NCBI GenBank assembly: GCA_029856365.1
Contig: JAHQWW010000045.1
Span: 1 to 26,243, forward strand
Source: Candidatus Hodarchaeota archaeon
Lineage (GTDB): Archaea > Asgardarchaeota > Heimdallarchaeia > Hodarchaeales > Hodarchaeaceae
Length of the DNA: 26,243 nt
Reading direction: 5' to 3'
Numbering within the stretch: the stretch's first letter is position 1; every line of letters starts with the position of its first letter. Position numbers and translations under genes: made by a program. Positions 790-25,783 of the stretch are shown one piece after another. A model generated the notes under the pieces. That model was given only the letters and a program-made list of their open reading frames with translations. It had not been told where the DNA came from and made no database searches.

Positions 790-1380
790 TTATTCATACG
801 CCCATACACTTATCTCTTTCCATCTTACATTTAATGTTTTAAAAACTCGTATGACTGGGAATGCATTTTTTCTATCACAATATAAAACACTTCTTGCGAT
901 CTTTTTGACATTTAAATCTGTTGTAATCCCTTTAAACGATGAGGTATAGAATTTTTCACGAGTTTTGAAAGAACTCTTTCCACCATAGAGTGCTCTATGT
1001 AATTTCATCTTTGTCTTCTGATCGCACTCTGAGGTATCGTAGACAAGTATCATTTTTGGTTTTAATGATGTTTGTTGTATCATTATAGTAATGGGAGTTC
1101 CAAAAAGAAGAATCCCATCTCCAGCTAACGCATTTTGTAATTCTTCTTCAGCTTTTAATTCATCCAGGCTCATCTGAGTAACTTGCATACCCTCATCTTT
1201 AATGGCTTCAATAAGTTCTTCCTTTTTCTGATCTTTCTGATCATAAATTATGGCCAAATCAATATCGGATTTAATTGTATCGTCCCCTGTTGCTACACTT
1301 CCAAAGAGAATGATTGAAAGAATATTACTCTTGTCTTTAATCTTTCTTGTGAAATTAATTGCTTTATTTAAACTAAACAT
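790..1380 (-). CDS. Minimal nucleotidyltransferase (MNT) antitoxin with C-terminal Cas2/VapD-like extension
   Basis: GSVATGDDTIKSDIDL is a GS-x10-DxD motif; C-terminal MILVYDTS...KLHRALYG...KKIARSVL; overlaps the upstream HEPN gene by 8 nt. Confidence 0.85.
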   Translation of the reverse strand: MFSLNKAINFTRKIKDKSNILSIILFGSVATGDDTIKSDIDLAIIYDQKDQKKEELIEAIKDEGMQVTQMSLDELKAEEELQNALAGDGILLFGTPITIMIQQTSLKPKMILVYDTSECDQKTKMKLHRALYGGKSSFKTREKFYTSSFKGITTDLNVKKIARSVLYCDRKNAFPVIRVFKTLNVRWKEISVWAYE

Positions 1381-1747
1381 TCAATATTCGCCTGCATATT
1401 CTCTTTATTATTTCATACTGCTTTTTTGCGTCTTTTGAGTACTTCCCATTTGTTCCACTGCCATATACATGCTTCGGTCTTAAATTTTCAATTTTCTCAA
1501 TAGCAGTCCATACTTCATCACTATAATTTCTCAATCTTTTCTCATGAACTAACACAGAATACATTTTGTTATGTTTTTCATCCTTATCAATCCTAAGGGT
1601 GTTTAGCTTATGCATCGCTGCGTTGACATAGTGGTTAGTGAGTAACATAATTAACTCGATTATCGCTTCATAATCTGTATCATCGTTTAGTTTCCTTAAA
1701 CTTGCATCAAGATGCTGGATTTTTTCTAGATGGGTTTCAATCTTCAT
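1373..1747 (-). CDS. HEPN-domain protein (UPF0332-like), partner of MNT
   Basis: 124 aa, helical; KHNKM...IENLRPKHVYG resembles the HEPN H...R..xxY pattern; translationally coupled to MNT. Confidence 0.7.
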   Translation of the reverse strand: MKIETHLEKIQHLDASLRKLNDDTDYEAIIELIMLLTNHYVNAAMHKLNTLRIDKDEKHNKMYSVLVHEKRLRNYSDEVWTAIEKIENLRPKHVYGSGTNGKYSKDAKKQYEIIKRICRRILNV

Positions 1748-1758
1748 GTTATTATATA

Positions 1759-1869
1759 TAACAAAATGGTGTTAAAAAGCTTTCTGTTATACTTATTCGA
1801 CATACTTGTATTTATGATGCTTATGTTATAGTTATTTAACAAAACAGTGTTAAAAAGCTTTCTGTTATA
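1759..1869 (-). promoter_or_regulatory. Duplicated BRE/TATA promoter-operator unit of the HEPN-MNT operon
   Basis: 33-nt direct repeat taacaaaa(tg/ca)gtgttaaaaagctttctgttata at 1759-1791 and 1837-1869; minus strand reads GAAAGCTTTTTAA about 25 nt before the HEPN ATG; flanked by TAACA/TGTTA half sites. Confidence 0.65.
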
Positions 1870-1931
1870 TATATTTAACATAACAATGATTTGTGATTTA
1901 TTTCAATAATAATTACCTTTCAATAAGTTTG

Positions 1932-2050
1932 AGTCATAACCAGCATAAAGGCACCCTGTGTGGGAATTTTTCGAAAATCTCTCGTCAGGTGGCTTCAGGA
2001 GTCGGTAGCTTCAGTTGGAGTAGGATCGGTCTGATGTCTGTATGTTGTTC
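1932..2050 (+). repeat. Dispersed repeat, copy 2
   Basis: ...aaaatctctcgtcaggtggcttcaggagtcggtagcttca-N16-tctgatgtctgtatgttgttc. Confidence 0.9.
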
Positions 2051-2227
2051 GAAGATCGAAGGCGTAAGTAAAGTTAGTATTGAATCTCTTGTGACTGAAG
2101 TGAAACCATCTTGTTTGAGCTAGGAAGAAGTCATTACTTCTCTCAAAAACGAAATTTCTAAATGAACGCAGCCGGTGGATTAGACGGTTGCGTATGAGTA
2201 TTCTTCTTTTCATTCCTTATATTATTG
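2050..2227 (+). pseudogene. Duplicated 3' fragment and downstream region of the 8403..8849 gene
   Basis: About 178 nt aligning to 8776-8952 with roughly 20 differences by hand count; encodes KIEGVSKVSIESLVTEVKPS. Confidence 0.9.
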
Positions 2228-2251
2228 TTGAAGCTCTTTTAGGCCTCCTCG

Positions 2252-4951
2252 CTAGTGATTTACCCCCAGATTTTTCGAAAAGAATTTATTATCTTTTTGA
2301 GTTTGCTTTCCTCTTTTTTTCGTTAGTTCATCAAATAATGAGCGTCCTTGATTGTATAGCGCATAATAGAGATCGACAATCCCTATTGTAGGATATGGGT
2401 CTAATCCGAGTTCTTGTGACAGTTGCTGGAGGTACATGAGGTTATCGTCGGGCAGAAAATCATTCAGATCCTTTTTCTCGGCCTGAGTAGTGATGCTAGA
2501 GGCTTGGAGGCTTTGTTGGATCTCTTTGTTTGAGTGCTGTTTTTGTAGCTGGGTGATTTCTAATAGGAGATTATTGACCATCGTGTGTGCCAGATCAAAC
2601 AGGTGCCGAAAACCTTGCCATTCTAATGAATCTATCATCACCAGGTCGTGGTATTCTGCGATTCGCATCCATGGAATCGATGTTACCCGTATATGGCGTA
2701 AAAAATTGACCAATCTCCCGATCAGGGTCTTGACCTTCGAATTGGTATCCGCCCGCTCCTTAGGTGAGGAGGTAATATCATAAAATGATTCTAAACGTTT
2801 TAATTCTTGGTGAGCTTGTCCAACTTCCTCAATTGTCAGTGGAGCGGGCATTGAATTTACAAACGCATATTGTTTGGCGTAATATTCTCGTCCTTTCTCG
2901 GTAATGATCCAGTAGGTGGCTCCCCTATCTATTTCGGTAGTAAATAGTCCTAACGATTTCAATTGGTTTAAGGAGAGTTCCTCCTGTTTTGTACTTTCGA
3001 GGATTCCTATGATTTCACCTGTTTGACATGGCTGGTGGATTAACAATTTCAGGAGTTTCATCAGTATCTCGTATTTCATAGGGGTTAACCCTAGTGTTTC
3101 CGAACCTCGCTGCTTTGTTTTGAGCACTGTGACTGGTTTTAGATCAACAGGTAACCTTTGGTCCAGTTTAAAATGGAACCCAACATTTTGTGGGGCATCT
3201 TCTCGGAACAGCAATCCTTCTCCTTCTATAATCCCTAGCGATTGTTGTTGTTGTTGTTTATAAGCGGAGGATTTTGTTTTCTGGCCTATTTTTAATTCAT
3301 GTCGGGTCATCACGAGCTTTCGATCTTGGGCATTAACCATTTTTAAATAGACGGTATTTCTGATTTCATCAAACGTGTCCATATTCATGGCCAGTTCCTG
3401 TAATTGATGACTGCTTACTATCAAGATATTGTGACTGGTGATCGCGTTACAAGCATCCATTATACTGGAACTGCCAATTTTTCGATCGCGTTTATATCCT
3501 GCTTGTTCGGTGAGAAATTCTGGTGTATGAGTCAGGACTACACATCCCTTTCTCATGCTTTGTGAGAGGTAGTGGAGTAAGAATCCCACGGTGGCTCTAT
3601 GGATCAGTGGGGGTTGTGCCCCAAACTGAAAGAACGTCATTGTATTTTCTCGCACTAGGGTATTACTGTAATGTCCTGTAAATGAGGGATAGTTCACCTC
3701 TGGAAATGATCGAAATTGTTCTAGCACCCCTACGATTGCCTCAATTGCCATCATATCTGCATATATCATATTACCCTCTGAATTTTCCTCCACATCGCTT
3801 TCGTTTCCCCCTCCAAAACTCAGGCTCACATCTCGCAGTGTGAATAAGTGGGTTTTTTTCGCAGTTTTTCTGATTTGGGATTCTAAGGGCACCGCATAAC
3901 GAGCGGTCAGGTATTCTGAGGTGTTTAGCGAACTCAGCAGGAGTTGACTGATCAAATGGGATTTCCACGCTGCTTGGGCTTCTATCTCTTGTTTTTCCCC
4001 ACTTGGTGATCTCGGGACGATCACATCACACAGGTTCAGGTGAATATTGGTGCCTAATTGAAACATTTGTACGGGGAAATCTTTAGGAGGATGAGTCTGA
4101 AAATAGTTAATGATCCCATTGAGTTCGTTATGGGTATCTATCACAAAAATCTGCCTAGTGGTTCCTGTGGTTCTTATGCCGTTGAGCAGTTGTTGCACTA
4201 CGGATATTGTTTCTCTTTTATTGGATCCACAGACTAATACGGTGCCTGTGGTTAATGTGGGAAATCCAACTGGCCGTGCAGGATTTTTTATTCGAGTTCC
4301 TAGTTGGTATGTAACTGGAAGATCAGGGCTAGCGTAATCCTGAAATTGTCTTGAGGGTACTCGATCTAATTGCAGAAACGGTTCTATGAGTTTTGAATGG
4401 AATCCTTTCTGTCCCTTAAAGACAGTGACGGCTTCGGGTACTCTCTTCCTATGGAAATATACTTGACTAATTTGTTCCCCAGTAATTAAGGTGACTTTAA
4501 ATCCTGCTGCTTGGAGGATTGTGTGCATTGTCGATCGGCGTTTAACAAACTTTTTTCGGGCTTTCTGAACGAGTATGGGGAGAATTCTCTCAAAATTGAC
4601 CCAAAACTTCAATGAAACCTCGACGAGGAGGAGTAAGGCAGTGTGGGAGTCATCTGCGTCAGCATATTTGGATTTAGTTGAGCGTGCGGGGAAAATTTCT
4701 CTAATTACTTTCACTCCCTCTTCATCACTCACCAAGGACAGGCTTCGGGCTGCATCCATGAAGTCCTTCCGCGGTTGGAGGGCAAAGATCGAAACCAGTC
4801 CAGCGAGCGGTGCCCAGGGGATATCCATTTTGACATAATCAGGTTTCTGCATGATGAATAAGGTAGATTTATCCTCCAACACTTTCGTTGCGAGTGGCAT
4901 TCTCCTTACTGATCTATCTCGGTACGCGTGGATACCCCAATCAGCTTTCAT
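2252..4951 (-). CDS. Large HerA/VirB4-like P-loop protein with degenerate Walker motifs and C-terminal wHTH-like segment
   Basis: TVLVCGSNKRETIS at the Walker A position (no GKT/S), IFVIDTHNEL (cf. D.kgEy), HLNLCD, CVVLTHTPEFL at the Walker B position (no DE), LIVSSHQ; C-terminal YWIITEKGREY resembles a wHTH wing. Confidence 0.65.
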   Translation of the reverse strand: MKADWGIHAYRDRSVRRMPLATKVLEDKSTLFIMQKPDYVKMDIPWAPLAGLVSIFALQPRKDFMDAARSLSLVSDEEGVKVIREIFPARSTKSKYADADDSHTALLLLVEVSLKFWVNFERILPILVQKARKKFVKRRSTMHTILQAAGFKVTLITGEQISQVYFHRKRVPEAVTVFKGQKGFHSKLIEPFLQLDRVPSRQFQDYASPDLPVTYQLGTRIKNPARPVGFPTLTTGTVLVCGSNKRETISVVQQLLNGIRTTGTTRQIFVIDTHNELNGIINYFQTHPPKDFPVQMFQLGTNIHLNLCDVIVPRSPSGEKQEIEAQAAWKSHLISQLLLSSLNTSEYLTARYAVPLESQIRKTAKKTHLFTLRDVSLSFGGGNESDVEENSEGNMIYADMMAIEAIVGVLEQFRSFPEVNYPSFTGHYSNTLVRENTMTFFQFGAQPPLIHRATVGFLLHYLSQSMRKGCVVLTHTPEFLTEQAGYKRDRKIGSSSIMDACNAITSHNILIVSSHQLQELAMNMDTFDEIRNTVYLKMVNAQDRKLVMTRHELKIGQKTKSSAYKQQQQQSLGIIEGEGLLFREDAPQNVGFHFKLDQRLPVDLKPVTVLKTKQRGSETLGLTPMKYEILMKLLKLLIHQPCQTGEIIGILESTKQEELSLNQLKSLGLFTTEIDRGATYWIITEKGREYYAKQYAFVNSMPAPLTIEEVGQAHQELKRLESFYDITSSPKERADTNSKVKTLIGRLVNFLRHIRVTSIPWMRIAEYHDLVMIDSLEWQGFRHLFDLAHTMVNNLLLEITQLQKQHSNKEIQQSLQASSITTQAEKKDLNDFLPDDNLMYLQQLSQELGLDPYPTIGIVDLYYALYNQGRSLFDELTKKRGKQTQKDNKFFSKNLGVNH

Positions 4952-4985
4952 TAGTGAATCACTCTAGCTATTGATTCTCTCCCCT

Positions 4986-5034
4986 CTTTATATATTCAAA
5001 AACTCCCAATTGGTCTTCATTTTGAATATAAAAG
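4986..5034. promoter_or_regulatory. Divergent TATA boxes within an 11-bp inverted repeat
   Basis: tatattcaaaa (4991-5001) and ttttgaatata (5020-5030) lie between divergent ORFs ending at 4951 (-) and starting at 5062 (+). Confidence 0.5.
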
Positions 5035-5061
5035 GTTTCATGGGGATGATTACTGAGTATT

Positions 5062-5325
5062 ATGGCATCTTTCAAGAATCCAGTAATTCCGAAAATTTTT
5101 CTCCAAGCGCATGAACAGATGATTCAAGGCTTTGCTTTTGACCAGCGAGGTCAACTTTCCAACGCTCGTGATTCTTACATGCAAGCCACTCGTCTTTATG
5201 CCCCTCTTTTTAAGAAATTTCCCCAAGCAGCCTACCCAGACATGTGGCGGAGAGAAGCGACTCTTTGTCTTAAGACATTGGCTGCCACTAATCGCACAAG
5301 GGCTAACTGTGTGGAAATTAAGTAG
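5062..5325 (+). CDS. Small MIT-domain-like protein; C-terminus derived from the dispersed repeat
   Basis: FLQAHEQMIQGFAFDQRGQLSNARDSYMQATRLY fits the MIT helix pattern A....A...D..G....A...Y..A; the last ~15 codons lie inside repeat copy 3. Confidence 0.55.
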   Translation: MASFKNPVIPKIFLQAHEQMIQGFAFDQRGQLSNARDSYMQATRLYAPLFKKFPQAAYPDMWRREATLCLKTLAATNRTRANCVEIK

Positions 5326-5390
5326 TCCTATCGTCAGGTGGCTTCAGGAGTCCCCAGCTTCAAATAGACGAATATTGGTCTGATGTCTGT
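5279..5390 (+). repeat. Dispersed repeat, copy 3
   Basis: ggctgccactaatcgcacaaggg...gtggaaattaagtagtcctatcgtcaggtggcttcaggagtccccagcttca-N16-tctgatgtctgt. Confidence 0.9.
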
Positions 5391-5579
5391 CTGCTATGAT
5401 TCTATTTTTCCACTTAAAATAATATCTCCGACAAAAAATCCAAAATCAATTATTTTTAGCTTAAAATCGCGGAAATTCCACTAAAAACTCGGAGAGATTC
5501 TCGAGATACCCTTTTATTACCATGAGCACCTTAAATTACGAGAAGGGAATTTCGTCGGATATACAAAAGAAGGGAAAAC

Positions 5580-5846
5580 ATGAATCATTGCCAGATATGT
5601 GGAAGGGATAGCTATCTTATCCAGTGTTCTAGCTGTCAAAGATATACTTGCGAGTTCTGTATCACTTTAATTTCTCAAACAGGGTGGGAAAGACTACAAC
5701 ATTGTTTATATTGTGGAACCCGATTTAAGGAATTTTTTAGAAAAAGGAGTAGAGAGAAAATTAAATGTTTGAATTTAGCTTGCAAGGCTTGTTATCCACC
5801 CAAGAAGGAGGCTGTAGAGAAGCGAGAGACACCACAACCTTTGTGA
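5580..5846 (+). CDS. Small Cys-rich zinc-finger protein
   Basis: CQIC, CSSC, CEFC, CLYC, C..CKAC pairs; purine-rich sequence before the ATG. Confidence 0.65.
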   Translation: MNHCQICGRDSYLIQCSSCQRYTCEFCITLISQTGWERLQHCLYCGTRFKEFFRKRSREKIKCLNLACKACYPPKKEAVEKRETPQPL

Positions 5847-5969
5847 GTGAAAAACTTCCTAGGATTCCCTAATACCCCTAATTACGACTAGCGTAACACC
5901 TGGATAGAACTTTCTTATTCCGCTCTTCTATGCTTTCATTGTACTATTAAGATAGTGAAATAAAAATAA

Positions 5970-6067
5970 CTACCTAATCGTACCAGGGTTAATTTTCTCA
6001 AAAAATGTGGAAATTAAGATTTTTCACAAATCTTATCGTCAGGTGGCTTCAGGAGTCGTTTGCTTCA
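5970..6067 (+). repeat. Dispersed repeat, copy 4 (right end truncated near the vapC stop)
   Basis: ctaatcgtaccagggttaattttctcaaaaaatgtggaaattaagatttttcacaaatcttatcgtcaggtggcttcaggagtcgtttgcttca. Confidence 0.9.
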
Positions 6068-6081
6068 GATTAGGTACTTAG

Positions 6082-6504
6082 TTATTTCCAGTCTTCAAGA
6101 AGAATGATTCGCTCATCCTCTAATTTGGAGAATAATCTCTCATCTGCTGTTATGACTTCGATTTGATTTCTTCTCCCAATAGCAATGTAACTCGCATCAT
6201 AAATTGTTATTCCATATTGATAAGCTAAATCAATTGTTAGGTTTGCTAACTTTTCCTCAAAGGGTTCAATTCTGAATTGAAAATCAATTAGGGCTTTAAT
6301 TATCTTTTTCACGTCTTTGCTACCGAATTCTGGTTTGTAACGTAATACATTGGCGATTTCATAAAAGAAGAGTGCTGGGACAATTGGAGTTGCTTCTTTT
6401 TTGAGATAATCTCTGACTTCTAGTGCTTTTTCCGTATTGATTTCGTCAACAAACCATTTGAGTGCAACTGACGCGTCAACAACTAATGTCTGATCTCTCG
6501 CCAT
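6082..6504 (-). CDS. vapC: VapC PIN-domain toxin
   Basis: VVDASVALKWF, YEIANVL, TIYDASYIA, ITADERL: the full PIN acidic set. Confidence 0.93.
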   Translation of the reverse strand: MARDQTLVVDASVALKWFVDEINTEKALEVRDYLKKEATPIVPALFFYEIANVLRYKPEFGSKDVKKIIKALIDFQFRIEPFEEKLANLTIDLAYQYGITIYDASYIAIGRRNQIEVITADERLFSKLEDERIILLEDWK

Positions 6505-6731
6505 GCTCTCAATTCCTCTGTGGTGTTTCCCTTAGCCTTTCTCCGCAACTGATCCATTATTTGTATTGTATGGTCAATAACCTTACTATCCCGATCCATA
6601 ATTCTTTTTTCTTCCTCTTCAACTCTTTTAAGAACTGCTGTTCTCATAACTTCACTCCAATTTATGTGGGATAGCTTTTCAATCCGTTTTTTCAAGTTTT
6701 CTGGGATTTTTGTACTCATTGTTGGCATCAT
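6483..6731 (-). CDS. vapB: VapB antitoxin (RHH/CopG-like)
   Basis: TMSTKIPENLKKRIEKLSHINWSEVMR is a typical archaeal RHH antitoxin start; overlaps vapC. Confidence 0.85.
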   Translation of the reverse strand: MMPTMSTKIPENLKKRIEKLSHINWSEVMRTAVLKRVEEEEKRIMDRDSKVIDHTIQIMDQLRRKAKGNTTEELRAWREIRH

Positions 6732-6781
6732 CTTTCAAGAAAATTAATACCAATCGGTCTTAAAAATATTACCTTTCTTCC

Positions 6782-6802
6782 TGTGGAAATTAAAATTTTT
6801 CA
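6782..6802 (+). repeat. Short partial copy of the dispersed repeat
   Basis: tgtggaaattaaaatttttca vs tgtggaaattaagatttttca at 6006. Confidence 0.55.
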
Positions 6803-6867
6803 AGGAGAGGAATCCTTCAGTGACAGGGCATTCTGTTTAATGTTTCTTGGGAATATTCTACCGTAGT

Positions 6868-6971
6868 ACACTCTTTATTCTTATCTGTTTTTGATGATTG
6901 ATCTCTATGATAGTGCAGTAGTGTAAGTATGGGGTTTTCCGCTGACAGGTTCAGCCACTGATCGTACCTGG
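6868..6971 (+). repeat. Left-arm copy of the dispersed repeat
   Basis: actctttattcttatct...ttgatc...gatag...gacag.tt.agccactgatcgtacc aligns to 13631-13732 and runs into the gccactaatcg motif. Confidence 0.75.
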
Positions 6972-7335
6972 AAATCGTTTTTGAATTAGGTGATTTCATT
7001 AGATGAATCGAGAAAATAATATATGGTGGAATATTTGGAATCATTCCAAAATCCTTGCTTGTTTTGGAGTTTTTTTAAGAATTGTATCCCTTTCTTAATG
7101 AAAATTTATGGGTCTGAGGATATGAGGGTCCAATTGATCATAACAAACATCGAGGATTCGATAAGCAGCATATAATACCAGCCATTTCTTTAGGCGTTAG
7201 TCTTTCATTATCGAATCCTTGATTATTAGCCATTAACAAACCTTCTCAAAAATAACGAGAATCCGTAACTGAAATTTTTGGAGAGAGATTAAGGTTTAAT
7301 TACATATAGTAGTCAGCAAAATGTTTTTTCTCTTT

Positions 7336-7360
7336 AGCTTCAGGAGTCTGCAGCTTCAAT
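7336..7360 (+). repeat. Core of the dispersed repeat forming the 3' end of the PIN gene
   Basis: agcttcaggagtctgcagcttcaat; reverse strand encodes IEAADS-stop. Confidence 0.8.
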
Positions 7361-7759
7361 TAAAACCACGAGTTCATCTGGACTTAAGATATTTTCCTCC
7401 CCTAGCCAAGTAAAATGAGTTTTATTAAATGTGATCAGCTTTGATTTGTGAACCTGAGCGTGAGTTCCTATAATGAAGTCCCTTGCATGATGTCTAAACG
7501 GTAATGCTGAGTACTTTGCATTTTTACTAATATGGAAAATATTTTGATAGGTTAAATCATTTATCTCTGCTCCAAGTGCCTCAATATCCTTTTTAAACAA
7601 TTCTTCGGAGATTCCACGCACATTGTACCAATGAAATGTTTCTAAAGTACTAATCACAGATAGGAATACATCTAACTTATCCTTTGATAATTGTAACCAA
7701 TCAATAAAATCTTGGTCGCGAAAGATATTACTATCCAGACTTATCCGCAGGAATTTCAC
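7340..7759 (-). CDS. PIN-domain (VapC-like) toxin
   Basis: SLDSNIF, SVISTLE, ARDFIIGTHA, LITFNKTHF. Confidence 0.88.
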   Translation of the reverse strand: MKFLRISLDSNIFRDQDFIDWLQLSKDKLDVFLSVISTLETFHWYNVRGISEELFKKDIEALGAEINDLTYQNIFHISKNAKYSALPFRHHARDFIIGTHAQVHKSKLITFNKTHFTWLGEENILSPDELVVLIEAADS

Positions 7760-8033
7760 CCCAATTTGATATCCGCATATCCTCGATTAGAGGTCCTGGT
7801 GCTTTTAGCGCGTTTCGGATCGCTTTTCTCCATTGAAGATTTTTCCGTTTATTCACTGCTCTTTGAATAATCTCACGGGCTTTGGGATTAGGAGAGTACA
7901 ATTTCACACCTATTTCTTTTTCGAATAACCCAACTGCACGTGAAATTATGTCCCCTTGGGTCGTGTCGAGTTCGGCTGCTAATTTCTTGATTTTTTTGCG
8001 AAGTTCATCATCTACGGTCACAGAAGAAGGCAT
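7731..8033 (-). CDS. RHH-type antitoxin
   Basis: SSVTVDDELRKKIKKLAAELDTTQGDIISRAV; overlaps the downstream PIN gene. Confidence 0.8.
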   Translation of the reverse strand: MPSSVTVDDELRKKIKKLAAELDTTQGDIISRAVGLFEKEIGVKLYSPNPKAREIIQRAVNKRKNLQWRKAIRNALKAPGPLIEDMRISNWGEIPADKSG

Positions 8034-8849: not shown

Positions 8850-9130
8850 GAAGAAGTTATTACTTCTTTCAAGACGAAATTTCTAAATAAACGCAACCAT
8901 TGGATTAGACGGTTGTGTATGAGCTTTCTTCTCTTCATTCCTTATGTTATTGAAAGAAAAAAGCTTTTTTTACGATAACCTATTAAATTAGTAGATTTTC
9001 ATGAAAAAAATATAATTTCTAAGAAAATTAACAGAAAATTATGTGTTGGATAGAGGAACATACTCTCAGTACGAGAGGAACGGAGTGTCGGCGGCTCTTA
9101 TCTACGGGTTATCTGGAAGAGTACCCCGTA

Positions 9131-9183
9131 TGGCTACCACTAATCGCACCAGGGCTAATTTTCTATAAAATTATGGAAATTAG
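9131..9183 (+). repeat. Dispersed repeat, copy 7 (middle segment only)
   Basis: tggctaccactaatcgcaccagggctaattttctataaaattatggaaattag. Confidence 0.85.
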
Positions 9184-9678
9184 AAAGAATATTTCTCATC
9201 TGAATAATGTTTGGATACGCGAATATCTCTAGTTCTATTAAGGATGGAAAATAGGGCATAACTAGTAATAAGTATCAAGAATTTCAATTGGATGTTTTTT
9301 CCACAACCGAGGCAATGTATGAGATCAAATCCTTTACTTCCTCCAATGCTCTTGATATCATCACTCATGGCCTTGAGTGGTTGAAACAGGGCTATTATCC
9401 AAGATTTAATCCTGCGTGGCCCAAAGCTATCTATAAATGGGGGCCTCTCCAAGTAGGATTCTAAAAATTGTTATATTTTTTCTTAACTGGCTTCTAATCT
9501 TCTTATTTCGTGTTTAACCGAGGTTCTTAGTCTTTGGGTGTTTATATGGATATCATGAAATAGACTTTGAATGACATTCAGTAAATTTCAATTCTTATTA
9601 AACTCAATTAATATCCTATTGAGAAAATTTAGGGTGTTCATAAAGGAGGTACTAAATAGAGGGACGGTGAAAAGCGAA

Positions 9679-9714
9679 ATGCCTCCTCAAAGTGGCTCTC
9701 CTCCTTGCCAATAA
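9679..9714 (+). CDS. Candidate small peptide MPPQSGSPPCQ (frame is open back to ATG 9571, giving 47 aa)
   Basis: GC-rich 36-nt ORF in AT-rich spacer; GGTGA SD-like site 8 nt upstream; U-rich tract at 9725-9750; counterpart at 21613. Confidence 0.5.
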   Translation: MPPQSGSPPCQ

Positions 9715-9752
9715 TTTAAAATATAAATTCTCCCCTTTTTCTTTTTTTCTTA

Positions 9753-11306
9753 TCAGAACAGATTGGGCTGTATCCACATGAGATTATTTTGATCAAACCA
9801 TTCGAATTCCATTCCATGAGGAGGATGTGTTGGTAAAATTGGATATAGTTTCCATTTAAGCTCATCTTTAATCCATTGGATTAACTGTGAATTCAACCTT
9901 GTCCATATTTGGATAGATGAATCAGTAATATAGTATTCACAATATGGTATTGTATTTAGGAATGTTTTTAACTGAAGTTTTGGAATTCGGGGAAGTTTAA
10001 TCCAGTAAGAATCTAATGAAAATTCATAGATAAGTCGATATGGCACAAATCCAATGTGAACTACTTGATTGTAATGTAACTGTCTAAGTAGACCGATTTC
10101 AGAACGGGAAAGTGTGAATGTGTTTTGTGTACAAGCTGTTTGAATAGGTAACGATGAAATTGAGAATTCTTTAGAAAATTTACAATATAGTCTGATGATT
10201 TGAGTGGGTAGGGGGTGTTCCTTAAAATCCCAGTTAGGATTATAGGATGGTGTTGTAAATGACAATGAATATGGTTGAAACTTCTTTCGTGGATGTTTCA
10301 CCTTTATTTGACTTGTTAATCGAGTCATTTCCTTTTGACTTAATTGCGACCACCCAGTGCCTACTATATAGTTTTCAAAAGAGACATTTCGATGAATAGT
10401 GTATATCTTTGTTAAATCTATAACGTTTATATCTCCTTCTGTTTCACGATGGTATAGATATGCTTTTAATTGGTTAATTGTATTTGTAGGGACAACTAAT
10501 GTCCCAATATAGGCATTTGGATGATCTCTAACATAGTAAACTGCGCTTAGACCTAAGACAGTGTAATCTCGATTATGAAAATCTATTATATCTTTTAATG
10601 AGTTTCCTACATTTAGTTCAAAATGAAAAAACAAACGATCCAATCCAAAGGCGGGACTATGAAAACGTAAAAACCATCGACCATCAATGAGGCGAAAAAA
10701 TCGGGAAAGCTCAGTTGTTGGTTTCACATTATGGGGAAAAGGTACTTGGCTGATAATGGCTGTTCTTATCTTTCGTTGATTTAGTGCATCTATACCTCCT
10801 TCTTTGATGAATGAGTAAAGAGTTATCAAGATCTGAAATTGGTGTTCTGAAAGGGGATAGAGGAGTTTATTGCTTTCATACTGCAATTGCTCCCATGCAA
10901 GATTCGATAATGGAATATTTTCTCGTATAAGTCCATAAACTCCAGGAGTACTAGAGCTCCCTCGAAGATGTTTTGCAATGTATTCATAAAATCGATTTGC
11001 GTGAAATTTTGAGACGTTTAACAACAGATAAGCATTTGAAAAATAGTTGTAAGTAAACCATAGGAAAGCCGTCTGGAGGTATTGATCAGTTCCCAAAATT
11101 CTATTATTGTACTCTTCAAAGCGCTTTGAGAGCTTATTTCTTTGGTAGTCAGCCTCTTCGTAATATTGAAGGACTGAGAGGAATTCCGTTAGTAAAAGTT
11201 GATCAGATGGTGGATACTCCGCAATATGATCTGGAAGCTGTTCCATAATAGTTTTGATAAAACGCTTAAAACTCTCTCGACCTGGCCGAACCACCTCACT
11301 GCTCAC
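9753..11306 (-). CDS. Uncharacterised ~515-aa protein, probable tandem wHTH/Lrp-AsnC-like regulator (paralogue 1)
   Basis: Shares YPPSDQ, EFLSVLQ, AWEQLQY, PAFGL..LFFHF.L, DIIDFH, EFSLD.YWI.LP with 21768..23306; two LS..(E/Q)..(I/L)L..L HTH-start-like segments. Confidence 0.75.
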   Translation of the reverse strand: MSSEVVRPGRESFKRFIKTIMEQLPDHIAEYPPSDQLLLTEFLSVLQYYEEADYQRNKLSKRFEEYNNRILGTDQYLQTAFLWFTYNYFSNAYLLLNVSKFHANRFYEYIAKHLRGSSSTPGVYGLIRENIPLSNLAWEQLQYESNKLLYPLSEHQFQILITLYSFIKEGGIDALNQRKIRTAIISQVPFPHNVKPTTELSRFFRLIDGRWFLRFHSPAFGLDRLFFHFELNVGNSLKDIIDFHNRDYTVLGLSAVYYVRDHPNAYIGTLVVPTNTINQLKAYLYHRETEGDINVIDLTKIYTIHRNVSFENYIVGTGWSQLSQKEMTRLTSQIKVKHPRKKFQPYSLSFTTPSYNPNWDFKEHPLPTQIIRLYCKFSKEFSISSLPIQTACTQNTFTLSRSEIGLLRQLHYNQVVHIGFVPYRLIYEFSLDSYWIKLPRIPKLQLKTFLNTIPYCEYYITDSSIQIWTRLNSQLIQWIKDELKWKLYPILPTHPPHGMEFEWFDQNNLMWIQPNLF

Positions 11307-11630
11307 CTCTAAAAAGGAGAGAACTTGAAAATTTAATCTTCTATTTCATTTCCAACAGACAAAAAATAATCTCATAAGACTTAAAAGAGTTTGTAAGCTT
11401 ATATAGCTCTTATAAAGTATTTTTTTTAAATAACCTAATAAGGTATAATCCATATGATTACTCCAGATGAATCTTTTATATTAGAAAAATTCATTATAAA
11501 GATAGGCTTCCCCATTTAAACTAAGAGCGAGATGGACTCACTTTTTCTGGCATGATAGGCCACGATGACTATTGTAGGTTTATGTTTGCAAGTAAACAGG
11601 TTTCTTTTCATGTGAAACCACTCAACATTA

Positions 11631-13898: not shown

Positions 13899-14273
13899 TT
13901 ACAAGACAGCTTTGGCCTTTTTTAGGTCATCTACTCCAATAACTATTCTATTATTTTCAGCTAGGTAAATTAAATTAATATTTATATCTTCAAGGGCTAA
14001 TTTTCGGAACAACCTTCCACCTGAACCAGGTTTTTTCACTATTTCTTTGATTTCAATAACAAGTACTTCTCGTTCTTCTTTAATCTTAAACCCAGCTCGT
14101 TTAAGTACATTGTAGGCTTTTCCAGAATCTTCTACCAAAATGTGTATTAAGTCTTCTCCTTCACATGCAGCTCCGCAAAGGCCTTCTATATTAATATTAG
14201 CCTTCCCTAGAGTTTCTCCTAAATCAGCAAGAGTACCAGGTCTGTCTTCTAATATAATAGTAATATCCTTCAT
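13899..14273 (-). CDS. ACT domain-containing protein (tandem ACT)
   Basis: LEDRPGTLADLGETLGKANINI and KKPGSGGRLFRKLALEDININLIY. Confidence 0.9.
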   Translation of the reverse strand: MKDITIILEDRPGTLADLGETLGKANINIEGLCGAACEGEDLIHILVEDSGKAYNVLKRAGFKIKEEREVLVIEIKEIVKKPGSGGRLFRKLALEDININLIYLAENNRIVIGVDDLKKAKAVL

Positions 14274-14549: not shown

Positions 14550-15140
14550 TCAAGTTTTTTTTGTTAATGGTTCGGGAATTACATTATTTGGGATGTACCC
14601 GAGGGTGGCGTGATACACAGCACACGTCGCCACGACAATGGAAGTGTTCACCATTGAGGTCTCATAGTACCACAGATTCTGTGTGATATCTTTAAATAAA
14701 TAATCTTTAATGGTGTGATACACCTCTTCTCGCATCTTCATCGGGATAAGATCCGTCTTATGTTGTAGAATGAACGTAGTCGCCATCGGACTATATTTTG
14801 TGATATTCTCCAAGCATAAGTTCAGGTACATTCTGTTTTGGGACATATCTTTGATCTCAACAGAATCTATTACATAAACCAATGTATCCATATCACCAAA
14901 GATCACTTTTGATATGTCATTTTTAGAACCTACAAATCGATCTAGAAATGCTGTTGTCCCTCCTAAATCCCAAAATTCTATTTTTATATTATTAATAACC
15001 TGTGTATGTCTTTCATACTCTATTGTTGCATGAAAATCTATATCTGTCATATCTGTTATTTCTTTAAATAACCATTTGCGGATCATGGTCTTTCCTGATC
15101 GTGTTAATCCAAACAATACAATTTTGTTGGTTTGTGTCAA
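14550..15140 (-). CDS. Ras-superfamily small GTPase (Arf/Rag-like)
   Basis: G1 GLTRSGKT, G2 AT, G3 WDLGG, G4 HKTD, G5 ETS; TTG start. Confidence 0.88.
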   Translation of the reverse strand: MTQTNKIVLFGLTRSGKTMIRKWLFKEITDMTDIDFHATIEYERHTQVINNIKIEFWDLGGTTAFLDRFVGSKNDISKVIFGDMDTLVYVIDSVEIKDMSQNRMYLNLCLENITKYSPMATTFILQHKTDLIPMKMREEVYHTIKDYLFKDITQNLWYYETSMVNTSIVVATCAVYHATLGYIPNNVIPEPLTKKT

Positions 15141-17080: not shown

Positions 17081-18034
17081 TTGAAAATTCGTTTTGGTAT
17101 TCAGATTGAACCTCAATTAGGTTTCAGTTATGATACTGTGGAAAAAATTGCGCTAAATGCTGAAAAAGTAGGTTATGATTCTCTTTGGTCTAGTGACCAT
17201 TTTTTCCTCGATGATAAATCAGAAGAAAAAAATTGTATGGAGGCATGGACTTTGCTTGCTGCTTTAGCTGCTAAGACTAATACATTACGTCTTGGTACTC
17301 TGGTTACGTGCAATAATTATCGTTACCCCCCAGTTCTTGCAAAAATGGCAGCTACTGTGGATATGATTTCAAATGGAAGACTAGAGTTTGGTATCGGTGC
17401 AGGATGGAAAGAAATCGAATACAATGCTTATGGTATTTCGTTCCCCTCCGTCAAAGATCGTATGGATCAATTAGAAGAATCTATCCAGATTATTAAAAAG
17501 TTATGGACAGAACCTAAGGTTAATTTTTATGGAAAGCACTATCAAATTAAGGATGCATTTTCAGCACCTAAACCTATCCAGCAACCACCACCTATTTTTG
17601 TAGGGGGAACTGGAAAAAAGAGAATCCTAAATATGGTTGCAAAATATGCTGATTATTGTAACTTTGGATGGTTCCTTGATCCAAAAACTATTCCGGAGTT
17701 ATTAGATGTATTAAAACAGCATTGCAAAGATGTAAGTCGTGATTATGATTCTTTGGGGAAATCATACTTTGCATCAGTAATTGTGACTGAAACTGAAGAT
17801 GAATTAGAGAAAATTTTGGCAGAAAGAGCTAAATTACGGAACATGAGTCTAGAAGAATATAAAAAGTCTATTGATAGCTTAAATGTGTTTTATGGCACAC
17901 CAGAAGTCGTTCAACAGGGATTTGACAATCTTATTGATCTTGGATTTGATTATTTCCAAATAATGTTTCCCTATCCGAGAGATTTCGAGCAAAGCAATGA
18001 ATTCGCTAAGTTTGTATTACCAAAACTTAAATGA
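17081..18034 (+). CDS. LLM-class (probably F420-dependent) oxidoreductase
   Basis: GYDSLWSSDHF, EAWTLLAALA, RLGTLVT, YRYPPVLAKMAATVDMISNGRLEFGIGAGW, PPIFVGG. Confidence 0.93.
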   Translation: MKIRFGIQIEPQLGFSYDTVEKIALNAEKVGYDSLWSSDHFFLDDKSEEKNCMEAWTLLAALAAKTNTLRLGTLVTCNNYRYPPVLAKMAATVDMISNGRLEFGIGAGWKEIEYNAYGISFPSVKDRMDQLEESIQIIKKLWTEPKVNFYGKHYQIKDAFSAPKPIQQPPPIFVGGTGKKRILNMVAKYADYCNFGWFLDPKTIPELLDVLKQHCKDVSRDYDSLGKSYFASVIVTETEDELEKILAERAKLRNMSLEEYKKSIDSLNVFYGTPEVVQQGFDNLIDLGFDYFQIMFPYPRDFEQSNEFAKFVLPKLK

Positions 18035-18156
18035 GAACTACAACTAAAATCCAAGAATGAACATAAAGCTGAACACGAGAATGAATACGAAGTTGAAGAT
18101 GAAAATGAAACTATAGGTGTACAGGGAGTTTAAGTTCAACGATATAAAAAATTCTT

Positions 18157-18696
18157 CTATTCAATCATCAAAAAAGTATAACGGTTCATTTTCTCTGAAT
18201 AGTCTTTGAGAACTTCAATTGGGTAACCTAGCTGTCTTACTGTACTATAGACATCAATGGCCATTCCCTCGGGAGTGGGGCGCGAAAGCCGTGGGTATTT
18301 ACACGCTTCTCTCTCTTTCGTACAATCTTGGCAGATTTCACAACTATCCATAAAGAGAAGGAATGCTTTCACATAACCAGAGAGAAATACTTCTTTTTCG
18401 AGTTTCAGAAGTTCCAAGTTTATCTCTTTCGTCCAAGCAAATCGATCTTCGGGTTGTGCCACCTTTTTTTCGAAATGAAAGACCGCTGCTTCCTTGTACT
18501 CCCGAAAAAACCTTTCACATTCTGGAACTGACAAAGTATTCGGAGGACAGGAAGCATTCTTGCCGTATTCAGAACATCCAAAAATGCATTTCATTCGTAC
18601 CCAATATGAGACAATGATTTTCTCAGGATTGATCCATTTAAAGTCCGTAAATCCATTTTTTATAAATTTCCGTTCCAAATCTTTTCTAAACGCCAT
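18157..18696 (-). CDS. DUF2284-like predicted metal-binding protein
   Basis: WVRMKCIFGCSEYGKNASCPP, SCEICQDC, CKYP...RPTPEGMAIDVYSTV. Confidence 0.85.
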   Translation of the reverse strand: MAFRKDLERKFIKNGFTDFKWINPEKIIVSYWVRMKCIFGCSEYGKNASCPPNTLSVPECERFFREYKEAAVFHFEKKVAQPEDRFAWTKEINLELLKLEKEVFLSGYVKAFLLFMDSCEICQDCTKEREACKYPRLSRPTPEGMAIDVYSTVRQLGYPIEVLKDYSEKMNRYTFLMIE

Positions 18697-18813
18697 ATCC
18701 TCTCACTTTGAGATTTTTTGAATATTTTTTTTATCATGGTTATTCTAGTCTACAAGAATTGAATCTAAGATTTTTGGGGTAATTATATTCTCCTTACTTT
18801 AGATGTTATTGAT

Positions 18814-19098
18814 GTGATTAGGGTGAATACTATCCAGTTATTTCTATCCGAAAAGAAAAAACTTCAGAAAAATGTCACTATAAAGAAAAAAAGTTGTTCT
18901 ATTAGCTCAACTGATATTAGACTAAATGAACCAATAATAAAAACTCCCTTCAATCAAGTTCTAAAAACAATTCTGGAATTAATGAATAAAATCCCTGTAG
19001 AAGAAGAAGTGTCATGGAAAAATATTCATCAATTAAGACAGAAATTTGTTAAACTTCATAAAAACCCGAAATCTGGTGATTTCAATCTTAATAATTAG
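18814..19098 (+). CDS. Hypothetical protein
   Basis: 94-aa ORF co-oriented 38 nt upstream of the HerA-like gene; no motif recognised. Confidence 0.45.
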   Translation: MIRVNTIQLFLSEKKKLQKNVTIKKKSCSISSTDIRLNEPIIKTPFNQVLKTILELMNKIPVEEEVSWKNIHQLRQKFVKLHKNPKSGDFNLNN

Positions 19099-19136
19099 GT
19101 GGGAGACTAAACAAAGCTGAAATTGATTTTTGAGAT

Positions 19137-21284: not shown

Positions 21285-21612
21285 ACTCTTCTTAATATCT
21301 TACTTATTCTCTTAATAGCTCTTTCTGGATTACTAAGGAGTATATCCAACAGTTATACTTTTCTATGAGTTAGAATCATGATTTTCGGGTTCTTATAAAG
21401 AGATTTCTTCATGTATATTAAAAGTTGGGAGTTTATAATAGGGTAAAGAGTTACTACATTGATATCAATCATGCCTACTCCTTATAAGATTCTCAAAAGA
21501 AAATTAGGTGTTATTAAAACAATGCATAAGAATCTAAAAATGAGATTTTAACTAAGAAAAAAGTTAGGAGATTATATTTATTTTGGGGAAGTGGAAGAGT
21601 GAGGTTAAAACA

Positions 21613-21651
21613 ATGTGTCCGCCTGGCCCTGGTAGTCTACCAAATTCTTAA
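21613..21651 (+). CDS. Candidate small peptide MCPPGPGSLPNS
   Basis: GC-rich 39-nt ORF; GAGGT SD-like site 7 nt upstream; U-rich tract at 21704-21730; counterpart at 9679. Confidence 0.5.
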   Translation: MCPPGPGSLPNS

Positions 21652-21767
21652 GAAACTAAGAGAATGATTATAGTAACATATTACGTTCCTATATTATCTC
21701 ATCAAATTCTCTCTTTTTTTCTTCATTTCTCTCAAAAAAAAGTATTAATCAATATCTCTCGTTTTTG

Positions 21768-23306
21768 TCAAGTTGTTAAGACAAGAGGAGCTTTCCATTG
21801 CTGAGTTTTAAGGTCGTACCAGTCAAAAACAAGATTTTTAGGGTTATGATTTTCGACAATTGGCATGACACTCCATTCAAGATCAGTACGCAGCCATTGG
21901 GCTAGTTTGGAGGTTAAAAAAGTCCATATATGTATATTTGTCTCAGTGAGATAAAGATAACTAGAAGGAAGCCAAGCTAACAACCTTGAAAGTTGATCAA
22001 GTGGCATTTTGGGGAGTGTTATCCAATAATTGTCAAGTGAGAACTCAGAGATTAGTCTTAAAGAAAGAAAACAAATATGGAGTGTTTTTTGAAGATACAA
22101 TTCTCTTAATAGCTTAATTTCAGGTTTAGAAAGTCTCATGGTGATTTGACTGTTATGTGAACCCAAAGGCAGTTCCTGAAAGGAAAATCTTCTAGGAATC
22201 TTACAGTAGAGGGCAATTATTTGGGATGGATTGTGAGATTGATTATGATGCCAAAATTTATTGAATGGGGGGGATAAATAAAAAGAAAAATGCTTAATGC
22301 GCTTTTTTCGTGGGTATTGTGTCTTTAGTATCGGAACTAATCGACGCCAATCAGTTTGAGTTGGATTACGCCAACCCTTTGTAGCTTGATAGAGAAACAA
22401 AGAAACGCTTAAGTGTGAAGTGTCAATTTTTGTAAGCTCATAGAGTATTAATTGGCCAAGACGCTCACATTGTTGAAGATATTTTCGTAAGGACTCTACA
22501 AATTTAGTAGGTACAAATAAAATTCCACAATATGTATTGTGGAAGCCTCTAATCCAATAGATATTACTGTAACATAAGATGGTGTTGGTCGGATCATGAA
22601 AATCGATGATGTCTTCTAAAAAAGTAGATTCACTAAGCTGAAAATGAAAAAATAGGAGCTCTAAGCCAAATGCTGGAGTATAAAAATAAAGAAGCCAGTT
22701 TGAATCTAATCTAGAAAAAAGACCAATAAGCTTTCTTGAAAGAGTAGGTGATTTTGCTCGATTTAAGAAATAATTTTTTATGTAGCTTTGATTTAAGGCT
22801 TTAATTCCAATTTCCATACAAAGAGTGTGTACTATCTCAAGAACATGAAGCTCTTCACTGGTGAGTGGAACACTGAGTCTATTGCAGGCATATTGAAGTT
22901 GTTCCCATGCAAAATCTGTTAATGGAGTGCCTTTACTTACTAACTGAAATACCCCATGTGTATCAGAGTCACCGCGAAGCTGTTTCACAAAATATTCATA
23001 AAAATCATCTGCGTGAAAACTTGCCACGCTTAATAAATTGGATGCATTCTGGAAATAACTCTCAACGAACCAGAGGAAAGGTAGAGACCAAAACTTCTCA
23101 CTGTTTCGATATTTGTTGTTAAATCTTTGAAAGATTTCAAGAAGCTGCTTACGAGCTGCTTGAGTATCTACTTCGTAAGATTGTAGAACAGACAGGAATT
23201 CATTAAGAACAATCTGATCTGAAGGAGGATATTTTGTTACATAGTTAGGAAGTTGAGACAATATAGTTTCCATAAACCGTTTCCATGTTTTACGCTGATA
23301 AGCCAC
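21768..23306 (-). CDS. Uncharacterised ~515-aa protein, probable tandem wHTH/Lrp-AsnC-like regulator (paralogue 2)
   Basis: Colinear full-length similarity to 9753..11306. Confidence 0.75.
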   Translation of the reverse strand: MAYQRKTWKRFMETILSQLPNYVTKYPPSDQIVLNEFLSVLQSYEVDTQAARKQLLEIFQRFNNKYRNSEKFWSLPFLWFVESYFQNASNLLSVASFHADDFYEYFVKQLRGDSDTHGVFQLVSKGTPLTDFAWEQLQYACNRLSVPLTSEELHVLEIVHTLCMEIGIKALNQSYIKNYFLNRAKSPTLSRKLIGLFSRLDSNWLLYFYTPAFGLELLFFHFQLSESTFLEDIIDFHDPTNTILCYSNIYWIRGFHNTYCGILFVPTKFVESLRKYLQQCERLGQLILYELTKIDTSHLSVSLFLYQATKGWRNPTQTDWRRLVPILKTQYPRKKRIKHFSFYLSPPFNKFWHHNQSHNPSQIIALYCKIPRRFSFQELPLGSHNSQITMRLSKPEIKLLRELYLQKTLHICFLSLRLISEFSLDNYWITLPKMPLDQLSRLLAWLPSSYLYLTETNIHIWTFLTSKLAQWLRTDLEWSVMPIVENHNPKNLVFDWYDLKTQQWKAPLVLTT

Positions 23307-23399
23307 CTTTTAGTTCACCTTATTTTAATAAGGTGTTCTTTTTAAGTTTTGAAAGAAAATATTTGATAATTTTCTAGGTCTCGCTATAATTAATTTTTA

Positions 23400-23426
23400 A
23401 ATATTTATAAAGTCTTTATAAATATT
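23400..23426. promoter_or_regulatory. Perfect AT-rich palindrome in divergent intergenic region
   Basis: aatatttataaag-t-ctttataaatatt: 13-bp arms giving a TATA-like box on each strand. Confidence 0.55.
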
Positions 23427-23522
23427 ATCGATTTCATATGTTGTTTGAATCATTGGATTAGACTTCAGGAAAGAGACTTTTAAACATTCAAGTTATAACT
23501 CACTGGATCTAAAATTGTTCAA

Positions 23523-25657: not shown

Positions 25658-25783
25658 TGGGCCTGGGGGGATTTGAACCCACGACCATCCGGTTTCTCAA
25701 GCTCATTTGGGCAATATGAGCCGGACGCTCTAACCATTTCAGAGAGTGAAAGTGTTGAACACCCTAAACTGAGCTACAGGCCC
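25658..25783 (-). tRNA. tRNA with CAU anticodon, probably tRNA-Ile2, with two BHB introns
   Basis: Acceptor GGGCCUG/CAGGCCC with A73; anticodon arm UCCGG-CUCAUAA-CCGGA; introns 25766-25737 and 25714-25694; GGGCC start is typical of archaeal Ile rather than Met tRNAs. Confidence 0.85.

Follow-up and report, generated by a model that had tools for sequence, protein, structure and literature searches.

Convergent Pro-Pro micro-genes beside a double-Lrp-fold protein family in Hodarchaeales: a candidate peptide-plus-regulator circuit

Micro-genes behind a family of large genes

The DNA considered here (hereafter the window) is a stretch of 26,243 nucleotides (nt), contig JAHQWW010000045.1 of assembly GCA_029856365.1, from a Candidatus Hodarchaeota archaeon of the order Hodarchaeales. 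It carries two copies of a gene for a protein of about 515 amino acids (aa), paralogue 1 (P0001) and paralogue 2 (P0002), and behind each of them, on the opposite strand and pointing toward it, lies a very short open reading frame (ORF) for a Pro-rich peptide (Table 1). These micro-ORFs end 38 nt (micro-gene 1) and 116 nt (micro-gene 2) from the stop codons of the large genes. Their positions and stop distances, as well as the Shine-Dalgarno (SD)-like motifs and T-tracts that flank them, had been noticed in an earlier reading of the bare letters (the original prediction) and were borne out when the sequence was read again. The two large proteins are paralogues, as had also been proposed, with 41% identity over 506 aa (E 1e-140).

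To place these two ORFs in a wider frame, the convergent strand was read in the DNA past the stop codon of every fetchable copy of the large gene, and the census was based on 69 non-redundant loci, each with at least 120 nt available. A micro-ORF starting M-x(0-2)-P-P was found on the convergent strand at 52 of the 69 loci, and the arrangement was convergent at all 52. The micro-ORFs have 9–16 codons (10–12 in 45 of the 52) and start with ATG (48) or GTG (4), and all three stop codons are used (34 TAA, 12 TGA, 6 TAG). The distance from their end to the stop codon of the large gene is 19–204 nt (median 69), a run of at least five T (T5+ tract) lies between the two stops at 49 of the 52 loci, and the spacing from SD to start is 4–12 nt, mostly 6–8 nt.

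The recurrence of the micro-ORF behind the large gene far exceeds chance. This was assessed with a strict pattern consisting of a canonical SD, a start codon, up to three codons, CCNCCN and a stop codon, for a product of 9–14 aa. It was matched on the convergent strand at 41 of the 69 loci and on the gene strand at 2, as compared to 0.05 loci per set on average in dinucleotide shuffles. In the whole genome (4.24 Mb, hence 8.5 Mb for both strands), the pattern had 10 matches, and these included both ORFs of the window. The enrichment of short Pro-Pro ORFs past the stops of homologues, by which the original prediction was to be judged, is thus observed.

The encoded peptides differ from locus to locus: 51 are distinct among the 52 loci and one sequence alone recurs, in line with the earlier proposal that each paralogue has a peptide of its own. 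No feature but Pro-Pro, which comes after 1–4 residues, is strictly invariant; it is present in all 51 distinct peptides. Proline makes up 31% of the residues and glycine 18%, the tail is hydrophilic, and a rough consensus reads M-x(0-2)-P-P-x-[D/G/E]-G-[P/G]-[P/G]-[G/P]-x-K. The features that the two peptides of the window had been noted to share, GSxP and a single Cys, did not hold across the family, in which the conserved core is M-x(0-2)-PP followed by the Pro/Gly-rich hydrophilic tail. Peptides are typical of their clade, MPPQ or MPPP types accompanying paralogue 1 and M[SC]PP(P)xGG types paralogue 2: the orthologue of micro-gene 1 in locus L005 encodes MPPPGSPPPK, and relatives of micro-gene 2 in the same clade encode MSPPPEGGLPK, MSPPPGGPGPKE and MSPPPGGIGPDQ.

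We considered the possibility that what is conserved is an RNA or DNA element rather than a reading frame, in which case conservation at the nucleotide level with frame-breaking changes would be expected. The opposite was found. In 16 sister pairs (176 aligned codons), substitutions at codon positions 1, 2 and 3 numbered 44, 38 and 79, and the two invariant prolines are encoded by varying codons (CCC 39, CCT 32, CCA 31 and CCG 2 over the 52 loci). The micro-ORFs of loci L074 and L065 are separated by six synonymous changes and no non-synonymous one. The Nei-Gojobori (NG86) omega was 0.11 for the head (from M up to PP) and 0.47 for the tail, values to be read with the caution that a peptide-guided alignment may lower dN and that dS is close to saturation. 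Folding of 49 putative micro-ORF transcripts with ViennaRNA indicated no excess stability (mean z −0.23, with 10% below −2), and Rfam yielded nothing at the micro-ORFs, either in the window at E ≤ 1 or in 8850–9760 at E ≤ 10. The last two results rule out a structured small RNA as the main explanation. Taken together, the codon-level signal and the lack of excess folding or of an Rfam match indicate a translated micro-gene, not a structured RNA. As far as comparative sequence analysis can tell, the micro-ORFs are genuine, selected stand-alone genes, equipped with a promoter-like element (see below), an SD and a putative oligo-T terminator.

Table 1. Coordinates of the features at the two loci of the window
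Feature	Position	Strand	Remarks
Micro-gene 1	9679..9714	+	11 codons, ATG to TAA, product MPPQSGSPPCQ
SD-like GGTGA, micro-gene 1	9666..9670	+	8-nt spacer to ATG
T-tract (terminator-like), micro-gene 1	9736..9748	+	CTCCCC just before
Proximal promoter-like element, micro-gene 1, TTTAGGGTGTTCATAAAG	9628..9645	+	position weight matrix (PWM) score 13.2
Distal element copy, micro-gene 1, CTTTGGGTGTTTATATGG	9532..9549	+	PWM score 12.1
Double-Lrp-fold protein, paralogue 1 (P0001)	9753..11306	-	517 aa as listed; exact start uncertain
Double TATA-like element, paralogue 1	11397..11417	-	about 100 nt upstream of start
Micro-gene 2	21613..21651	+	12 codons, ATG to TAA, product MCPPGPGSLPNS
SD-like GAGGT, micro-gene 2	21601..21605	+	7-nt spacer to ATG
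T-tract, micro-gene 2	21714..21720	+	
Proximal promoter-like element, micro-gene 2, AGTTAGGAGATTATATTT	21562..21579	+	PWM score 8.7
Three further element copies, at 21383, 21423 and about 21501	21383..21518	+	PWM scores 13.0, 12.1
Double-Lrp-fold protein, paralogue 2 (P0002)	21768..23306	-	512 aa
Double TATA core, paralogue 2, AATATTTATAAAG-A-CTTTATAAATATT	23402..23422	-	about 100 nt upstream

The original prediction had also raised the possibility that micro-gene 1 is the end of a longer, RiPP-like (ribosomally synthesized and post-translationally modified peptide) precursor of 47 aa with a leader, starting at ATG 9571. A few close relatives (L005, L015 and L016) have a similar, open extension; a frameshift interrupts it in L006 and a stop codon in L014. 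Furthermore, an in-frame stop codon is found 0–3 codons before the start in at least 10 of 26 loci (L018, L019, L022, L023, L024, L027, L035, L037, L042 and L043). These upstream stops and frameshifts indicate that there is no leader peptide, and the 47-aa precursor was rejected as not conserved.

Homologues of the large protein were collected by a word-indexed search (43 proteins) and by an exhaustive phmmer search (158 cluster representatives). The 43 proteins bear hypothetical-protein names only and come from metagenome-assembled genomes labeled Hodarchaeota, Promethearchaeota or "Thorarchaeota". Within the same genus-level group, the family was found in all of the other 21 genomes, with 1–10 copies each; it was found in none of the 39 genomes searched of other families of the class. 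In its own assembly (4.24 Mb, 84% complete), P0001 and P0002 are the sole copies.

In a maximum-likelihood tree of the large proteins, the micro-gene occurs in the deepest branches (L082, L035 and L081), whose proteins are only about 25–31% identical to those of the window. This indicates that the pair is ancestral to the family and was retained through its whole diversification. As judged from this tree, micro-gene and large gene are co-inherited down to about 25% protein identity, and the micro-ORF, present at 52 of 69 loci, is a conserved partner of the large gene, as had been surmised from the two copies of the window. The tree also places losses of the micro-gene in about five discrete clades, several of which have a co-directional downstream gene instead. 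Such a gene is seen in the micro-gene-less sub-clades L075–L079 and L030/L033/L063/L070; in the latter clade, the N-terminus of its product resembles, as judged by eye, the acyl-CoA synthetase type.

Cis elements, large protein and genomic neighborhood

An expectation-maximization (EM) motif search upstream of the micro-genes disclosed an 18-nt element, TTTwGGGwGnTTATAAAG, of about 12 bits. In most loci, 31–33 nt separate its 3' end from the ATG; for both micro-genes of the window the distance is exactly 33 nt. The agaaaatt(t)agg(g)tgtt motif of the original prediction is real and forms part of this element, the copy at about 21501 being the motif as first described. Two or three copies on the same strand within 245 nt were found at 27 of the 52 loci, and a copy on the opposite strand at one locus; none was found in any shuffle.

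The element is rare. In its own genome (8.5 Mb, both strands), there are 47 matches of at least 10 nats, and four of these lie in the two spacers of the window, at 9532, 9628, 21383 and 21423. A looser version of the motif occurs within 150 nt upstream of 2 of 3036 long ORFs. The idea that TTTwGGGwG-TATA is the general promoter of this organism was abandoned in view of these counts and because the other top matches precede nothing consistent. By its distribution it is a dedicated promoter-like element, present in tandem, with an unusual G-rich part where the B recognition element (BRE) would stand. The tandem layout is as expected of an operator array and suggests one.

A second short ORF with an SD-like GGAGAGA, starting MTQ(I/N)D, was observed about 60–110 nt upstream of the micro-gene in L027 and L043, and in no other locus. 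It sits between the distal and proximal promoter-like elements.

Both large genes of the window are themselves preceded by double TATA-like elements (Table 1), which imply long 5' untranslated regions for both genes. The one of paralogue 2 is the core of a perfect 13-nt inverted repeat, and a strict version of the double TATA was present at 13 of 67 family loci, as compared to 0.65 in shuffles. This element is possibly a bidirectional promoter or an operator. At the other end of the large genes, no T5+ tract is found on their own strand before the antisense of the micro-ORF at 40 of the 52 loci, which indicates that the two convergent transcripts probably overlap at their 3' ends.

The large protein was modeled with AlphaFold2 (AF2) from 34 homologues (pLDDT 92, pTM 0.88). 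In the model, residues 1–150 form a helical bundle and residues 154–517 two consecutive Lrp/AsnC-like modules, each consisting of a winged helix-turn-helix (HTH) and a ferredoxin-like RAM domain (beta-alpha-beta-beta-alpha-beta). The best solved structural match was NirDL (4czc_A, Z 12.9, root-mean-square deviation 4.7 over 266 residues), and Foldseek retrieved 4ch7 (NirDL/AhbAB, E 2.5e-5). Single Lrp chains matched one module (8q90_B, Z 5.7; 2e7w_A, Z 5.6), and the neighbors in the ESM Atlas were clusters of archaeal hypothetical proteins with HTH_AsnC-type/HTH_24 domains (TM 0.55–0.64), among them clusters from Thorarchaeota, Bathyarchaeota and other Heimdallarchaeia. The N-terminal bundle had generic helical matches alone (Z 6–7.6) and may be of tetratricopeptide repeat (TPR)-like origin. 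Basic residues (R178, K179 and R181) are conserved in the first HTH, within its putative recognition helix 177–187; most of the invariant positions are aromatic or polar and belong either to the N-terminal bundle or to the first of the two RAM domains. A co-fold, carried out with the A1 alignment and the 47-aa extended ORF (the one chain of 30 residues or more from the window in which the peptide is contained), gave ipSAE values of 0.00 and 0.01, which speak neither for nor against a contact.

All attempts to assign the large protein to a family by sequence were unsuccessful. P0001 and P0002 had no HTH_AsnC-type, HTH_24 or AsnC_trans_reg match in Pfam or NCBIfam at E ≤ 1, a scan of 34 family members gave no Pfam match of any kind, and a profile search of the family against the PDB sequences yielded nothing meaningful. 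A confident double-Lrp fold without a sequence-profile match means that the protein is regulator-like at the level of the fold, as the model supports, and that its membership in the Lrp/AsnC sequence family is not supported. The regulator-like character assigned to the gene in the original prediction thus finds support in two fused Lrp/AsnC modules.

The micro-gene is the sole constant partner across all copies of the large gene. Paralogue 1 is surrounded by toxin-antitoxin pairs of the PIN/ribbon-helix-helix (RHH) type, a nucleotidyltransferase and a P-loop ATPase with a winged helix. Paralogue 2 lies in a syntenic block (17081–25403) that recurs in at least three further genomes of the genus (L087, L089 and L084) and comprises a divergent gene for a 626-aa protein, the double-Lrp gene, the micro-gene and genes for a HerA/DUF87-like ATPase, a 94-aa protein and a luciferase-like oxidoreductase. 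The 626-aa protein (23523–25403) had no Pfam match, and its feature matches in the Atlas were below 0.9.

Several other features of the window were recorded. A series of small genes of the defense or addiction type occupies 790–8033, with an MNT-like nucleotidyltransferase at 790–1380 and PIN-domain proteins at 6082–6504 and 7340–7759, each preceded by a small RHH-like ORF; 2252–4951 encodes an 899-aa protein without any Pfam match. A Gtr1/RagA-like small GTPase, a protein of the eukaryote-signature type, is encoded at 14550–15140 on the minus strand (Pfam E 2e-27) and adjoined by a gene for an ACT-domain protein (13899–14273). On the minus strand at 25658–25783, Rfam gave a tRNA match of 126 nt (46.6 bits), a length that implies one or more introns inside; ARAGORN detected no tRNA in the window. 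Finally, the 19-mer CCGTTCCTCTCGTACTGAG (9065–9083, minus strand) occurs once in the window and adjoins a dispersed repeat at about 9131. Near-identical stretches are found upstream of the family gene in L015 and L036, and downstream of it in L026. Rfam gave no rRNA match at this position of the window.

Possible functions of the pair

The reading that we favor is a peptide-plus-regulator circuit. In this circuit, each double-Lrp paralogue would have its own hydrophilic MxPP-Pro/Gly peptide as cognate small ligand or effector and, by way of its first HTH (R178/K179/R181), would in turn act on the TTTwGGGwG-TATA elements that lie in tandem before the peptide gene, and the tails that differ between paralogues would confer specificity on each copy. 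This scheme, which draws on the conservation, codon-level signal and ancestry of the micro-ORF, the fold of the large protein, the rare tandem elements, the diversity of the peptides and the precedent of an 8-aa leaderless peptide (see below), is possible, though it may well prove wrong. A more demanding version appears doubtful to us: the double-Lrp paralogues would be receptors, each matched to one gene-encoded Pro-Pro peptide of 9–14 residues, and this peptide, possibly after export, would switch the regulator at its tandem operator-promoter.

Several observations weigh against such a circuit. On the side of the protein, no Pfam HTH model matches the HTH regions in the 34 family members (E ≤ 0.1), and NirDL, the solved structure that the model matches best, is an enzyme rather than a regulator. 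On the side of the peptide, the products are hydrophilic and carry no export signal of any kind, and among the window neighbors and the fetched loci no conserved transporter, peptidase or maturase accompanies the pair. The known ligands of Lrp are amino acids, not peptides. Since the promoter-like element is similar at all paralogues, binding of the protein to it should lead to cross-talk. Moreover, linkage and co-inheritance by themselves would also be consistent with a simple pair of regulator and target, or with a translational device that acts in cis.

In the latter case, it would be the translation of the ORF that matters, not the free peptide. Pro-Pro at codons 2–5, followed by D, G, E or P, would stall ribosomes depending on the activity of aIF5A or the supply of Pro- and Gly-tRNA, and ribosome occupancy would set the extent of the short transcript, or its pairing with the 3' end of the double-Lrp mRNA, thus tuning the regulator. 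The strict invariance of PP in all 51 distinct peptides, the lower omega of the head (0.11, versus 0.47 for the tail), the abundance of Pro (31%) and Gly (18%) and the probable overlap of the 3' ends (40 of 52 loci with no T5+ tract on the strand of the large gene) are all consistent with this idea, and Pro-rich leader ORFs such as MgtL and MgtP and the eukaryotic PPW upstream ORFs (uORFs) are known sensors. Yet, the micro-ORF lies upstream of no cistron and is followed by a T5+ tract at 49 of 52 loci, and no conserved RNA structure of the attenuator kind accompanies it. Furthermore, the tail is under purifying selection, as indicated by its omega and by the L074–L065 comparison (6 synonymous versus 0 non-synonymous changes), and its hydrophilic character is preserved, which would be superfluous in a device for stalling alone. 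We consider this explanation unlikely.

We also considered that the double-Lrp protein simply controls transcription of the micro-gene, while the peptide acts elsewhere, on another component of the cell or outside it, and not on the regulator. Lrp-type regulators commonly control neighboring genes, and a specialized, genomically rare element in tandem before the micro-gene, together with the tight co-inheritance of the two genes, would fit this simpler arrangement. However, the peptides diverge between paralogues (51 distinct among 52) while the promoter element stays similar, a combination that is easier to understand if specificity resides in a contact between peptide and protein, and no conserved third gene is present that could be the target. 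A plain regulator-target pair therefore seems quite unlikely.

A third explanation is that the double-Lrp fold is enzymatic, as in NirDL/AhbAB, with the tiny peptide as a substrate to be modified or ligated by the protein. Among solved structures, the best match is indeed an enzyme with the same fused architecture (NirDL, Z 12.9), invariant aromatic and polar residues are found outside the HTH (Y31, R56, W83, W138-E139, Q142, W211, S254, S309, Y313 and W319), precursors can be as short as MccA, which has 7 aa, and a winged HTH could in principle act as a RiPP recognition element (RRE). On the other hand, there is no leader/core organization, the tail is too variable for one single chemistry, and no Pfam match to a nucleotide-binding, radical-SAM, YcaO, ThiF or other RiPP maturase domain was obtained for the 34 members of the large-protein family, for the window neighbors or for conserved neighbors. 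An exporter or immunity gene is likewise absent. We regard an enzyme-substrate pair, whose product would be a minimal RiPP-like or microcin-C-like compound made from an unprocessed precursor of 9–14 aa, as improbable.

It is very improbable that the GC-rich island is not a gene but a non-coding element (small RNA, bidirectional terminator or DNA site) with an incidental frame: CCNCC could in principle pair with a purine-rich leader, but start, frame and stop are preserved at 52 loci over 9–16 codons, SDs are spaced 4–12 nt (mostly 6–8 nt) from the start, the third-position excess (44/38/79) goes along with synonymous turnover of the PP codons, and excess folding energy and Rfam matches are both lacking.

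Comparison with known systems

Full-text searches of the literature yielded no published description of a micropeptide/double-Lrp pair, and the pair of the window was compared with systems that resemble it in part. The likeness to Lrp/AsnC regulators concerns the modeled fold, each half of residues 154–517 being predicted to contain a winged HTH and a RAM module. In contrast to these regulators, the large protein has two modules fused in one chain behind an extra helical bundle of 150 aa, and it has no Pfam HTH_AsnC or AsnC_trans_reg match. Two Lrp-like modules fused in a single chain are precisely what is found in NirDL/AhbAB (4czc, 4ch7), but the sequence identity is only 10–14%, the N-terminal domain is an addition of the large protein, and no NirdL-like_HTH or AsnC_trans_reg2 match was obtained for it in Pfam. 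The window neighbors include no nir/ahb, heme d1 or alternative-heme pathway genes.

Short ORFs rich in Pro codons are known to sense proline or EF-P/eIF5A (elongation factor P and its eukaryotic counterpart): MgtL and MgtP, which belong to the Salmonella mgtA and mgtCBR genes, and the eukaryotic AZIN1 PPW uORF. Such ORFs can report the charging of tRNA-Pro or the activity of EF-P/eIF5A. The micro-genes share with attenuators of the MgtL/HisL type an enrichment in codons for the amino acid that would be sensed (Pro 31%, Gly 18%, PP invariant). They differ from the MgtL type and AZIN1 in their position: there, the short ORF is upstream on the transcript of the regulated gene, whereas the Hodarchaeales ORF is convergent and followed by a T5+ tract at 49 of 52 loci.

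The closest working analogy is the RopB/SIP system of Firmicutes, in which a 24-bp ORF encodes an 8-aa leaderless communication peptide (LCP) that binds the neighboring cytosolic regulator (PMC10518010). In both cases, an ultra-small ORF encodes a peptide of mature length, with no leader or processing site, and adjoins the gene of a regulator or putative regulator, which is cytosolic in RopB/LCP (PMC10518010). Both also have an ORF missed by gene callers and peptide codes that differ between receptor lineages. The parts do not appear to be homologous. The putative receptor does not seem to be a RopB homologue, residues 154–517 forming two Lrp-like modules and not TPRs, and the large protein (34 members) had no sequence match to RRNPP-type families. 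Furthermore, the Hodarchaeales peptides are hydrophilic and rich in Pro and Gly whereas LCP peptides are hydrophobic, the orientation is strictly convergent, and the host is an Asgard archaeon.

Genes of 10–12 codons are invisible to annotation pipelines, and here selection has retained one, always next to the same large protein, at over 50 loci. What this means for archaeal biology depends on the function of the pair. Should it be a stalling device based on Pro-Pro, the micro-gene would stand alone as a translational sensor for aIF5A or for proline status, wired in an unusual, convergent manner. If the double-Lrp protein is a regulator that has the peptide as its ligand, control by gene-encoded peptides would extend from Firmicutes and phages to Asgard archaea with a different receptor fold, and the RAM domain of Lrp would gain a new class of ligand. 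If the protein is a true receptor, the pair would represent the first ribosomal-peptide signaling, between cells or within them, in archaea, made of parts unrelated to the bacterial RRNPPA systems and found in the archaeal lineage nearest to the eukaryotes.

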